A stretch of DNA of 64,000 bases from Rhina ancylostomus (taxonomy: Eukaryota), in contig JARFYF010000001.1 in the NCBI GenBank assembly GCA_030265395.1, positions 34,426,527-34,490,526 on the forward strand. Reading direction: 5' to 3'. Each line of letters begins with the position of its first letter. Positions within the stretch are counted from its first letter, which is position 1. The notes below the pieces were generated by a model, which searched no databases, was not told where the DNA came from, and was given only the letters and a program-made list of their open reading frames with translations. A program made the translations under genes and the position numbers. Shown here piece after piece: positions 12,438 through 43,348 of this stretch.

Positions 12438-15400
12438 CTGCGAAAGACAAAATTTCAGTCTATTAGCAAACAGTGTTAGGAAAACTGTCTGACATGCAGT
12501 AGCATCAAGTGTTTGCACAGATTTACACTGCATCTCAAAGACCAAAGAGACCGCAGGGTTTTCACCATTAACAATAGCAGTTTAAGTATTCCTCGACTTA
12601 TTAGCTTAAGAATTCCTCTATAACCTTCCTCTATAGTTGATACTTTCTAAACACTATCCACTCTGAAAGTACGTAACACTTTGTGATGGAGGCTAAAATC
12701 AACTGAATCCAGTCAAGCCACTGGCTTCCATCCCTCGCCACAGGCTTGATGATTGGCAGGTACTTGGAGATGAAGGTCAGCAGCACAAGTACACAAACTA
12801 TGTGACCAAAACCCACTCCTGGTTGGAAAACAAGTTATTTCTCCTCAGGAGGGATTTAACAAAGGAATATAATATTTTTATGGCAACCTTTTTCAACTTG
12901 TGTCTTCTACTGCTGGGGACAACCTGTTTTTAAATTACATCTAACTTTAAATTATTCTGTGCTTGCACAATCTTTTAATTGGGTTTTGTGATAAATATAT
13001 ATTAAGAAACTGTCATACAAATATTAGAAAAAAGCTGTCAATAAATCTCATTCCATCACATTTATAATATCTAAAAGTATTGCAAATTCATTCATGGTGA
13101 TTTTTCAGTATGAAGTAATGTTATGTTTGCCATCTTAATTTACAAAAACTAAACTAATGATCCCATCTCACAGCAGAGCCCGGTACTCAAAAGCAATCAG
13201 AGGCACTAGAGTTGCTGGTCACTTCTTAATGCAGTTTCCGTTTTCTTTCTAATATAAAACATGAGACACAGCTGACATATCACTGCTAGGATACCTTTCT
13301 GATTTTATACCGAACACCTAGTTAGCGTGGTATAATGCACCCTGTGCAGAACAATATGACACAGACATTTCAGGTCATTCTATAATCCAACTCTCATCTG
13401 AGTGGTCTGAGACAGTTTCAAATCTGCTTCACAGAGTGCAGCAAAGCAATCTTCCAGGCAGCGCTCCATCGCTTTCATCACACAAAGCCTACAACTCGGC
13501 ATGAATTACAACTGGCCCTTTTGCTTCTTAGTCCTGTTGTCGAAGCTCTGAAAAAACAAGCGTCACTTGTCTGCCAGTCCTCTTTCTTTAGCAGCCTTCA
13601 GGGTACAAAAGGCACTGGGCAACATAATCCTGCCATTTTCACACAAACTCAAAACACTATGAAGCTGAGCAGCGATATTTAAGGTTGCATGAGATCCCCG
13701 GCACAACATGCAATAATGTTATACTTCATTCCCATAAATCCACAGACTCCCCTGAAAGTGTCATCTAACTCTGTCCCAAGTCTTACCTGAGCATGGCACA
13801 CGTTACTGTTTTGCTGCAGCTGCATCAACAGGCTCCCTTAATCTCGATCATATTACTAAAAGTGATTTTTCCACAAACAGTCCAGTGCCCTCTGGCACAG
13901 ATTCTGTGATAAGGGGAAGGCCCAGTTGAATTGAAGCATCTGTGGCACTGCTCCACTCTGAATTATTACTGTCTTTTCTTTACGGCTCCCACCCCCTCCT
14001 CTTCTCCTCCCCCTCTTTAGCTGTTCACAGCCTGGATGAGGCATCAGATGCGGCTGCTGTAGCCTTGCTCTACTAAACAAATGCAACATACTGTTTGCCT
14101 GGTAACAGAACAGCATGTCGATTCCCATCTGACACCCTCTCCGGCATTAGCAAACCGCTGCACCAGACACTGGGAGCTAATTAACAGGATGATGCTTTGT
14201 TAATTGTGTTAATTTACTGGGTTTAATTCAAAGAAAACCACAATATAGTTGGCACCCTTGTTACGCTTCCAACTTAGCACTGAAGAAATGTACGAAAATG
14301 CAAAGACTGAATATGCACGGTGGCTGAAAAATGCCGGGATGAGTAAGGATGGGAAAAAGTCCAGCATTTCATTGCAGCAAGGTCAAGACAATATCACAAC
14401 CACCCACTGAAGTTAAAAAGATATAAACATCATGAAAATAAAACTTCTATAATTGAACTTATACATATAACCAGATTTATTAAAAGGAACATAACCGGTG
14501 TGATTCTGTGATTAGTTTGTTTTTGAAGCTTGGGAATTAGTTAAAAATTATTTGATTACCAACTCATCACGAACTTGACACAATAACCAGTTTAAATGTC
14601 AGTGATTTTGCGATAAAATAATTAATCAGCATTACTCTTTGGACCTTAATGTGCAACTGCCATGGGAGGAAGCTTTTCTTCCAAGATATGAATAAGCAGA
14701 GTATCCGGAACTTCAGCTTCAATTTTGTCAAAATCCCTTGCACTTTCTCTGCAATTAGTGCTTGTAATTAAATAATTAGAAACAGCCACAGTTCACTATT
14801 AGTCATGATGCCCGACGAAATTTACTTTGTGATTCTTAAGGTGCATGTCTCTAAATTGATTGTCATTTTCGTTCTTGGACTAATAGACTTCTTTAAGATT
14901 AATTATCAATATTTAGCAGAATGGTGATTACTTTGTTGTGTGTTTAGACTTTTTTAAAATATAAACTACAGGAATTAATGGCATTAATGTACTTTGCTAA
15001 CAACATTAAAATTAAATATGAAGACACACTGCCCACTTCATCCATGATTTTAACGAAGAATAATGTAACAGAGGAACTTGCTCTCTAAGGCTAATAGATT
15101 CCAATTTAAATTCAGGCAGAAGAGCATTCCTTTTAAATCACACTTTCACACCTTGCATTTGCAGATTATATTACATCTTGTGGCAAATTACTTTTTTCCC
15201 ATTTCATTTGCATGAGGAGGCACCTACCACAATCTCAAAAGTCTTTTCTCCAGCAGTGTATGTTTATAGCAGGTACAGATGCAACCTCACAACATCAAAT
15301 GCTAAATAAAATGGAAACAGAAAATTAAAATGAAGCACAATGACTGACTTGAAGTCATTCAACCATAGCTTGAACTGTGGCTGACAGGCTCTGCCCATTC

Positions 15401-19128: not shown

Positions 19129-19394
19129 ATTTGCATTCGGTGCTCCAAGTGTGGCCTCCTCTACATTGGTTAGACCAAATGCAGACTAAGTGACTGTTTT
19201 GCAGAATACCTGTCCATAACCATGACCTGCATTTCCCCGTTACCTGTCACTTCAAATCCCCCTCCCACACTATCACTGATATGTCAGTCCTCGGCCTCCT
19301 CCAATGTCAGGAGAATCCCAAGTGCAAACTGGAGGAACAGCACCTCATTTTCCATCTTGGAACCTTGCAGCCTAACGACATGAACATTGAATTC
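19129..19394 (+). mobile_element. Penelope-like element fragment, GIY-YIG endonuclease C-terminus (runs into a gap)
   Basis: Translates as CIRCSKCGLLYIG*TKCRLSDCFAEYL...MSVLGLLQC...KLEEQHLIFHLGTLQPNDMNIEF, with stop/frameshift decay. Confidence 0.85.
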
Positions 19395-39900: not shown

Positions 39901-42209
39901 TATGATTTATTTTAATGTAATGCCAAATTGCATACAGTAACTAGAATATCACAAAATATCTTGCAGCAGAGCAGCATCTAACAATCATTGAATTGCTTTT
40001 CAAATGTGCTTAAATATGTGATAATTCATACCTCTATTGTGATTAGATTACACCTCCTAATCGGTCTTAGCTTTCTACAAAAGAAATTGTCAATCAAAAT
40101 CTATTTGAAGAGGCTGACTGCATCAGTAACAAAGAAAAGTGCTTATATATTAAAATATATAGAATGGTATGCAATTGTGGTTAGTTTAGTGGGGTTGTCA
40201 ATCAATCAGAATTACAGTGTGACAAGGCATAATCTGTTAATGGTATAAACATAAACTGTATTTGTGTCACTCAACAAATCGTTGAATGGAGACATAAGTC
40301 CAACACAGTAGGGTTCTAAGCTTAAGCAAGCCTCATTTTTCTGTGTACTACATGGCTCTTACTCCTTGCTCTGTCAAATTAGTAATCGATGATGCTTTTG
40401 ATATAGTTATGGTTTCTACCTTTGTCTGTCAATTACTATATCGTGTGATTTTAAAAGCCCTGTAATTGGGAAATGTTTGTGCAACACACACAAAGCATCT
40501 TCCCAGGATAAAATACTTCCCTTGCTAAAGAGCTTCTCAGCTCCTAATTATAGATTCCAAAGTGCAAAGAACTGTGTGACAACAATTGCAGCAGATCAGT
40601 ACAAAAGTTAATGCCTTATAAGTATAACCTACAATGCAGCTCAAAATGGAGTAGAAATCTGTCCTCCATTGCAAATGCTGATGGTGAATATGATAGAAGC
40701 TGTGAGTTCAATGGAAGTAAATTTCAGAAGTAGAGTTTAATGCACAACTGCTATTATATCGCACATTTACAGCAAGTGACTAAACAAATACCTGCCCTGA
40801 TGTGTACCATGGAAGCTCATTAAGCATTTACTAGCAATTTTAGAGCCTCAGTAGTAAACAAACCACCAGCTTTATTCCAACTGGAGGAAACTTTCCTTGG
40901 AAAAATATTTCATAAAACTTCCAAGTAAAATGGAATTGCTCTGTTTAATTCCATACATCCTGCAGGTAAACAGAGATTCATTCATTACTGGGTACCAATG
41001 TTTCAGTGCCCTAATTTTCAGATAATAAAAACCCAGAGGGCTGATTTTAACCTGGGTCATGATAAGGATAGCTGAGTGACAGGGCAGAGAAACCTCCTCA
41101 GAGACTTTGGCTCATAGACTGGGCTATTGTAATTCCTGGATCTCATTTAAATACTGCAACACTGCTTCCTGCCTGAAACAGAAAGGTGTGCAAGGTGCAT
41201 AGGAAAGGTGTACAAGGATAGTGGATAAGAGCATAGGTAGAGGATTAAGTTATATAGCTCCTCAAGCATAAGAAANNNNNNNNNNNNNNNNNNNNNNNNN
41301 NNNNNNNNNNNNNNNNNNNNNNNNNNNNNNNNNNNNNNNNNNNNNNNNNNNNNNNNNNNNNNNNNNNNNNNNNNNAGAGCATAGGTAGAGGATTAAGTTA
41401 TTTAGCTCCTCAAGCATAAGAAAGAAGCAGGATTAGGCCATTCAGTCCCTCGTGCCTGCTTTGCTATTCAATAAGATAATGGCTAATCTTTTACCTCAAT
41501 GCTACTTCCTTTTACTGATCTCACATCCATCAATTTCCTTAAATTCCAACAATCTATCAATCACCATCTTGAATACCCTCAGCAACTGAGTGTCTACAAG
41601 CCTCAAGGGTGAAGAATCCAAAGACTCACTACCCTCTGGGTCAACATATTTCTTCTCACCTCCATCTTGAATGGCTGACAGCTTACTTTGAGACATCCCA
41701 GTCAAAGCTATCATCATTCTTGCATCTACTGTCAAGCCCCATAAGAATTTTGTACTTTGCCATGAGGTCCCCTTTCATTCTTTAAAAATTTACACAGTGC
41801 AAGTCCAACCTACTTAATCTCTCCTTGAAGGACAATTCCCCAATTCCAGATATCAATCTGGTTAACCTCTGCTGTGCTTCCTCTGAAGCAAATATATCCA
41901 CATTTAGACCTTGCTCCAACATTCAATATGATTGTGGCTGATCTTTAATCTAACTCCATGTACTCCCATTATCCCTTAAAATGTGCTTAGTTACCACAAA
42001 TCCAAGATTTATTAATTGGCCTGGTACCACCTGTAAATTTCTGCAGCCCACAGTGAAGTACAATTTTATAATGTTACTCCTGATTCTCCTTGCCCTAGTT
42101 ACCCCAACCAGCAGAAATAGTTTTTCTCTATCTACGCTGTCAATTCTTCTGAACCCTCTGAGGAACTCAATCATATCAACCCTTAAGCTATTTAAATTCA
42201 AGCAAATAA

Positions 42210-42380
42210 CAAAGGACTGCAGATGCCGGAATCTAGATGAAAAACACTATTATGCTAGAGGAACTCAGCAGGCCAGGCAGCATCTGTGGAGCGCAGTCCT
42301 GAAGAAGGGTCCTAACCTGAAACGTTGACCGCCTGCTTTTCTCCACAGATGCTGCCTGGCCTACAGAATTCCTCCAGCAT
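42210..42380 (+). mobile_element. Short Penelope-derived fold-back insertion with candidate TSD
   Basis: Inverted arms at 42252-42291 and 42341-42380; flanked by TCAAGCAAATAA (42198-42209) and TCAAACAAATAA (42380-42391); interrupts a CR1 fragment. Confidence 0.85.
42293..42332 (+). ncRNA. Minimal type I hammerhead ribozyme motif (Penelope pLTR type)
   Basis: GCAGTC-CTGAAGA-AGG(GTCCTAA)CCT-GAAAC-GTT-GACCGC: both core boxes, a 3-bp stem II, a 5/6-bp stem I and a loop-less palindromic stem III. Expression and activity are unknown. Confidence 0.75.
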
Positions 42381-43348
42381 CAAACAAATAAAACCCAAGT
42401 TTCTATAATCACCACTCATAATTTAACCCTTGCTTGTCAAGATATCAAGCTGGTAAATCTACATGGTACTCCATCCAAAACTGGAATATTTTTCCCCCAA
42501 GGTGTGTGTCCAAGTATGTTCATAATACTCTGGGTATGGTCTAACCAGCACTTGAATGGCAGCAGCAAAACTGCTATTCCCTTATGCATCAGGGCTTCTT
42601 GAAGGAAAGCCAATAATCTGTTAACCATTTTAGTATCTTATCAAAGATATAGAGTCCATCTACACAGATTAGAAAAGTGTAGATCTATGTAGATGGAGTC
42701 CATTAATCTTTGCTGCTAACATTTCACCATTTAGGAAATATTGAAGTCTGAAGTGGAAGGTTTTCCCTACATTCAAATCTATTTGCCATTATGCTGCCTA
42801 TTCACTCAACTTACCAGTAGCCCTTTGAAACATCATTTCCAAATACACTACAATAGGCAAATTTGCTTCCAAACATCTATAAATACAGTGAACCTAGCTG
42901 CAGATACATAACAGATCCCACTAGTTCCATCCTACCAATTTGGGTGCCTGCCCATTATTACTTCTCTCTCCTGCTGCTCAGTTAATTGCCTAGCCAGGTC
43001 AATAAATTGCCTTCATATCCATGAGCCTCAACCTTAGCCAACGGCTTCTTATGAGAGATTTTAGTAAGTACCTTCCAGAAGTCCATATAATTAACTTCCA
43101 TGGCACTGCATGCCCATGACCTTACTCAGCTCTCCCAATAAATCCAATCAGGTTTGTCAAGCATGATCTAATTTTCAAGGTGTTCAGTCAATCCACAGTT
43201 AATTGCAGAATCCAGCAATCTCCCAACAGAGGCTTGCTATTCTTCTGAATTCTCTTTCTCACCTTTTGTAAATTGCAAAACAGCTCAAACAATTCTCCAT
43301 TCTGAAAGCATTGTTCCCAAATCAAGAGAATTTTAGTAATTATATTAA

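Follow-up and report, generated by a model that had tools for sequence, protein, structure and literature searches.

A 175-nt hairpin is an old, very short Penelope-like retroelement insertion bearing the minimal hammerhead motif of its parent

Introduction

Insertions of EN+ Penelope-like elements (PLEs), such as Pen2a_Av of Adineta (PMC3846280; scheme in PMC8557442), are described as carrying head-to-head pLTRs, a tail of 30-40 nt at one end, TSDs of about 9-15 nt and heavy 5' truncation, and their pLTRs contain TATA and Inr-like motifs. In Poseidon of Anolis (PAc), the RT is followed by a C-terminal GIY-YIG domain, the pLTR carries a hammerhead and two classes of 3' ends define the tail. 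In vitro, the Poseidon protein was reported to nick and extend both strands, to begin synthesis at two internal sites, which determine the tail, and to use uncut RNA (Frangieh 2024, PMC11167929). The hammerheads of metazoan PLEs are minimal, i.e. they possess the core boxes, an unpaired nucleotide preceding stem II, a short stem I and a loopless palindromic stem III. According to Cervera and de la Pena (PMC4209133), the minimal PLE hammerhead showed no activity as a monomer and weak activity as a dimer, and paired hammerhead motifs on opposite strands 100-700 bp apart have also been noted. Finally, non-LTR retrozymes are PLE-derived, non-coding and equipped with a type I hammerhead (bioRxiv 10.64898/2026.07.22.740005).

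The locus described here is a hairpin at positions 42208-42382 of the window, i.e. of the whole stretch of 64,000 nucleotides that was analysed. Its layout, comprising an inverted pLTR, a tail at one end, a TSD and a minimal hammerhead, has already been published and is seen here at its shortest. Like the EN+ insertions, it combines an inverted, 5'-truncated pLTR and a TSD of the variable kind with the optional one-end tail of 30-40 nt, but it lacks ORF sequence, its direct arm starts from the Inr-like site and it measures 175 nt in all. The likeness to Poseidon PAc concerns motifs and ends rather than an RT tree, and neither an intact ORF nor a 5' pLTR-ORF junction was found for the family. 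From the hammerheads as detailed in PMC4209133 it departs by the family triplet GUU, by a stem II of 4 bp and, in this copy, by a G.U at G10.1-C11.1. Non-LTR retrozymes are presented as head-to-tail tandems with one hammerhead per unit (bioRxiv 10.64898/2026.07.22.740005), whereas the locus at 42208-42382 has a single motif within a pair of head-to-head pieces and no tandem units each with a hammerhead. The statistics of the family to which it belongs bear on the origin of inverted pLTRs with a one-sided tail in Penelope-like elements, and on whether the RNA serving as template is cleaved by the hammerhead.

Results

Judged by its letters, the 175-nt unit is two head-to-head pieces of a Penelope-type 3' pseudo-LTR. 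Family positions are numbered from the C of CUGA (= +1), which is 42299 in this copy.

42198..42209, no strand: left TSD copy, 12 bp, its last 2 nt overlapping the element end (direct repeat; paralogue bridging the rejoined site)
42208..42291, minus strand: inverted pLTR piece including the tail, family +43 to +126, 79/84 identical to the family majority
42292..42293, no strand: two junction letters matching neither arm (sequence and family majority)
42294..42382, plus strand: direct pLTR piece without tail and without TATA box, family -5/-4 to +84, 83/89 identical to the family majority
42380..42391, no strand: right TSD copy, its first 3 nt overlapping the element end; 42384 is G in related organism C

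An earlier note on this DNA had drawn inverted arms at 42252-42291 and 42341-42380, and these were indeed recovered as 40 nt with 90% complementarity. The true arms are longer, however, comprising 84 nt on the left and 42294/5-42382 on the right, and about 42 of the 84 nt of the left arm are unpaired for want of a right-side partner. Folding of the region as RNA, which had been suggested as a check, yielded z = -6.3 against 200 shuffles. The 12-nt direct repeat 42198-42209/42380-42391 was confirmed with 11/12 identical positions, and with the G found at 42384 in one contig of organism C both TSD copies are identical. Compared to the family majority, the copy carries 11 changes in 173 positions, an ordinary divergence for this family, and its right end at +84 lies about 13 nt before the most common position of the short end class (+96 to +98). 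We conclude that the hairpin is an old, very short Penelope-like retroelement insertion that bears the minimal hammerhead motif of its parent.

The surrounding DNA is an older repeat:

42083..42585, minus strand: older repeat split by the insertion (paralogue alignment), which we take to be a CR1-type LINE from its degenerate translation

The claim that the unit splits a CR1 fragment held as far as the split of an older repeat is concerned, since a paralogue spans the join free of gaps; the assignment to CR1 is putative. This paralogue, L247, is one of two other matches, and its alignment passes from one rejoined flank to the other with no interruption at the join (81/115 in the left part, 130/177 in the right part); the left flank alone scored 70, compared to a shuffle maximum of 48.5. 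L248, the second paralogue match examined, lent no support to the left flank. The motif is antisense to FIGN, as had been stated: a fidgetin-family ORF is located on the minus strand at 10156-12459, and the position at 42 kb presumably lies within an intron of this gene. Two related organisms, B and C, also carry the insertion at the orthologous site, and their contigs run from the flank into the element on the right side only (B) and on both sides (C); a search for an empty orthologous site, as proposed earlier, found none in these organisms. Since flank contigs of both B and C enter the element, the insertion is old.

The loop of the hairpin contains the following elements.

42296..42329, plus strand: minimal type I hammerhead motif (sequence, column counts and folds; definition from PMC4209133)
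42296-98/42327-29, plus strand: stem I (sequence)
42299-42305, plus strand: catalytic core CTGAAGA, followed by the unpaired A 42306 (sequence)
42307-10/42315-18, plus strand: stem II, with C>T at 42318 (sequence and column counts)
42319-22, plus strand: GAAA box (sequence)
42322-25, plus strand: palindromic ACGT (sequence)
after 42326, plus strand: predicted cut (sequence)

While CTGAAGA (42299-42305), GAAAC and GTT proved to be as first described, the stems required revision. Stem II is present in another register than proposed, as the family stem runs from G9-C20 to U12-A17 and leaves an unpaired A after the core, and stem I, drawn with 5 of 6 pairs, loses its outer G-C pair, which derives from the junction letters and not from the element. 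The suggestion that GUU had decayed from GUC at a CpG did not hold: T occupies this column in 74 of 76 copies, whereas true CpG columns are decayed in 25-36%. GUU is the state of the family rather than a decay in the copy at 42208-42382. The form GTCGAC appears in the loose-end consensus of a related family, and an older change from GUC in the master lineage is possible.

All further hallmarks of the minimal PLE hammerhead, i.e. CUGANGA, GAAA, NUH, the unpaired nucleotide at 9/10.1 and the palindromic 15.2-16.2, were found, but the pair G10.1-C11.1, retained in the family majority, is a G.U in this copy due to C20>T at 42318. An Rfam scan gave no hammerhead match up to E 10; the models that did match describe hairpins and remained under their gathering scores. 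This reflects a minimal form outside those models rather than absence of the motif. Among the fetched loci only the motif of this family was returned, and no hammerheads of other families. In the fold model, stems I and II of this copy form with probabilities of 0.22 and 0.32. Lacking the TATA box, changed at G10.1-C11.1, in need of a dimer partner and antisense to the host gene, the copy is probably inert. Dimer cleavage is reportedly the subject of a study by Lunse et al. 2017. Taken by itself, the locus is a dead repeat of an ordinary kind. Retention for a host function, be it as an intronic hairpin in the fidgetin-family pre-mRNA or as an active antisense ribozyme, could be read from the stable hairpin and from the occupied orthologous site in two related organisms, but is most improbable, as the divergence is family-typical (11/173), the arms are devoid of excess shared changes, a conserved stem II pair is changed and stems I and II form at a probability of 0.2-0.3.

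In the family, stem I is preceded by seven letters that are reverse-complementary to the catalytic core (-9 to +7; e.g. L117:2042-2057), and the upstream UCUUCA is predicted by the fold model to mask the core in read-through RNA (P ~1.0). A folding switch was considered and rejected; RNA starting at -4 likewise has a mostly paired core (~0.85), hence there is no clean switch.

To what kind of element the pLTR belongs was addressed with sequence patterns. A core pattern of 31 nt had at least 3,381 exact matches and an arm pattern of 32 nt had 4,943, with 0 for the reversed control in both cases. Most of 30 loci picked by the core alone extend upstream into a common pyrimidine-rich region with TATATA, and the inverted arm is joined in about 5 of them. 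Walking upstream on single loci revealed the order RT motifs, GIY-YIG-type frame, stop, pyrimidine-rich pLTR, hammerhead and tail. Pfam signals were obtained in 2 of 4 fragments, i.e. GIY-YIG (PF01541) in one of the four scanned (E 4e-4; 20.9 bits, just under the cut-off of 22.6) and RVT_1 with an RT fragment (E 0.035), while a fifth fragment had no match; the weak scores are explained by the decay of the copies. As read from these frames, the pLTR is tied to an RT with C-terminal GIY-YIG as in EN+ Penelope-like elements, and the coding sequence on longer copies supports the earlier view of an extremely truncated Penelope insertion. A full-length copy was not found (0 pairs with common downstream sequence among 161 tail ends), so that the source RNA is unseen. 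A PDB search with the RT fragment returned chance matches only, and a genome-wide Pfam search for GIY-YIG gave 5 matches, all on small contigs and none resembling the family. L094 and L095, on the small contigs C23785 and C12343, carry long open frames of the Penelope RT-GIY-YIG type, 315 and 377 aa in length, that are unlike this family and possibly represent younger families or foreign DNA. At L059:900-1640, a family stub lies inside the ORF start of a different Penelope family, itself beginning with an inverted pLTR arm. To judge by its repeats, the host is presumably a cartilaginous fish.

The alternative offered by the earlier note was a non-autonomous, retrozyme- or MITE-like family that moves as a unit. 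The best BLAST matches have their left end in common, and one junction type recurs (6/42). However, the common left end is an effect of query selection, and examination of copy boundaries detected TSDs and heterogeneous inner boundaries. A pattern restricted to the inner arms identified 159 fold-backs, with highly varied junctions among the 100 of 159 listed; junction strings were distinct in 41 of 42 analysable copies, and copies with the commonest junction type share 0.20 derived changes per pair, compared to 0.25 in random sets. Arm spacing ranges from 14 to 925 nt in 24 pairs from arm-selected loci, and the series extends to L079, L099 and L116, in which the inverted arm is joined to EN-bearing pieces. 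TSD scores of 8 or more were reached by 19/30 fold-backs and by 1/150 mismatched controls. TSD length varies (about 8-18 nt), the element ends are asymmetric and the tail switches sides between fold-back copies. A tandem array was seen by eye in none of the 42 copies, nor is there a DNA-transposon TIR/TSD signature, and the homogeneous interior, common diagnostic changes, fixed-length TIRs and fixed-length TSD of MITEs are missing. Copying as a unit is therefore largely refuted and very unlikely: the fold-backs are a truncation series. Gene conversion between the arms was likewise rejected, as 59 short pairs exhibited no excess of common changes (5 observed, 4.7 expected).

Ordinary 3' ends cluster at about +97 and at about +131 (14 and 14 of 30). 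The outer end classes are about 34 nt apart and separated by the 34-nt tail, in agreement with the tail of 30-40 nt published for Penelope-like elements (PMC8557442, PMC3846280). In short head-to-head pairs, leaving out 3 that are N-masked, the tail was present at one end in 27/31, at neither in 4 and at both in 0 (p 2e-5). Among 25 long pairs, with 2 left out, the respective numbers were 16, 6 and 3, amounting to a one-sided tail in 43/56 pairs of all spacings. A BLAST-ranked set of 26, which was selected for the left tail, had 20 one-sided and 5 both-sided tails. A separate table of fold-back ends gave a Fisher p of 2e-5, but overlaps the short and long pairs and is not independent of them.

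These tails bear on how the inversion arose. The same truncated Penelope origin would also be compatible with an inversion in which one cDNA primes itself or switches template, possibly on antisense RNA. Arkhipova 2013 accounted for the junction palindromes of Adineta elements by such self-priming, with an antisense template (PMC3846280). Short microhomologies (CAG, GTC) are frequent at the junctions of the present family, and the core is immediately preceded by its own reverse complement. Nonetheless, a folded-back cDNA cannot template an uncopied tail, yet the tail is often on the short arm and missing from the long arm (the reverse also occurs), and both outer ends coincide with the two sites at which ordinary 3' ends are located (of 30, 14 short and 14 long), making this route unlikely. 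In our view, the TSD-flanked head-to-head pLTR pair probably stems from a single insertion, with both strands of the cut target serving as primers, each for a cDNA of its own and each at one of two RT start sites. We infer paired priming from the one-sided tails together with the two-strand extension from two start sites reported in PMC11167929; pairs with both tails (5/26 in the BLAST-ranked set, 3/25 long pairs) argue against it.

For 5' ends, we sampled 90 arm-selected loci, i.e. 30 plus 60 of 70 further listed places, the 10 skipped being already in the sample, partner arms or the last two listed. Owing to N, 24 were indeterminate; a further 24 extended past -40, and the remaining 42 had their 5' end in the interval from -39 to +52. 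In eight of these 42 it was located at -4/-3 (p 3e-6; corrected p 1.5e-4). The A at -4 is part of an Inr-like TCAGT, and the TATATA upstream of it has its first letter 31 nt away, a distance for which the spacing rule for TATA and Inr provides the yardstick. In 4 of the 8 copies a TSD lies at or within 9 nt of the -4 start; the other 4 are without a clear adjacent TSD. The hammerhead cut was dismissed as the 5' end of copies, as only 1/42 ended at +28 to +30. The sequence around -4 would also make a good splice acceptor, and a reading as such is kept alive by D. virilis, where the 3' boundary of an intron coincides with the 5' edge of stem I (PMC4209133). A spliced upstream exon as the cause of the peak at -4 is unlikely in view of upstream letters that differ between copies and of the nearby TSD in 4/8. 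A TATA and Inr-like pair is described in Adineta pLTRs (PMC3846280), but the layout is not universal, as the Drosophila virilis promoter is reported as TATA-less in PMC2377424. The solo stub L161 (contig C1 near 4998850) shows a short stutter of its first letters between TSD and -4 start, as if the template end had been reached twice in copying.

Discussion

Starting from the observed family membership, RT/GIY-YIG link, two outer end classes, one-sided tail, variable junctions and TSDs, paired priming could have proceeded at 42208-42382 as follows. The protein of the element would make staggered cuts, 12 nt apart, at an AT-rich site. One target strand would prime at the tail site and give rise to the left arm, stopping at +43, while the other would prime at or near the short site and produce the right arm, whose cDNA would run to the 5' end of an uncut RNA beginning at about -4. 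The two cDNAs would then be joined. The hammerhead would be part of the insertion because the motif represents the first 33 nt of that RNA.

More tentatively, and in our estimate somewhat short of an even chance, the stubs may be run-off ('strong-stop-like') products: an RNA driven by the TATA/Inr promoter of any pLTR would begin at the 5' edge of the hammerhead, a Penelope RT-endonuclease dimer would prime both target strands, one per start site, and the uncut hammerhead would be copied whole. If true, the stubs would provide evidence on a genome scale that the two start sites known in vitro are used in pairs and that the hammerhead rarely cuts the template. No paper stating a paired-priming or run-off model was found in the literature searched, a coverage outside which most subscription journals fall. 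The regularities of 5' ends and tails are a hint at mechanism.

Elsewhere in the window, a second piece of the same Penelope family is located at 19134-19394 on the plus strand, where the 3' end of a GIY-YIG-type ORF leads into an N stretch. A separate small inverted repeat with 21-nt arms (86% complementary) and a 13-nt spacer lies at 42649-42703, 260 nt to the right of the element.
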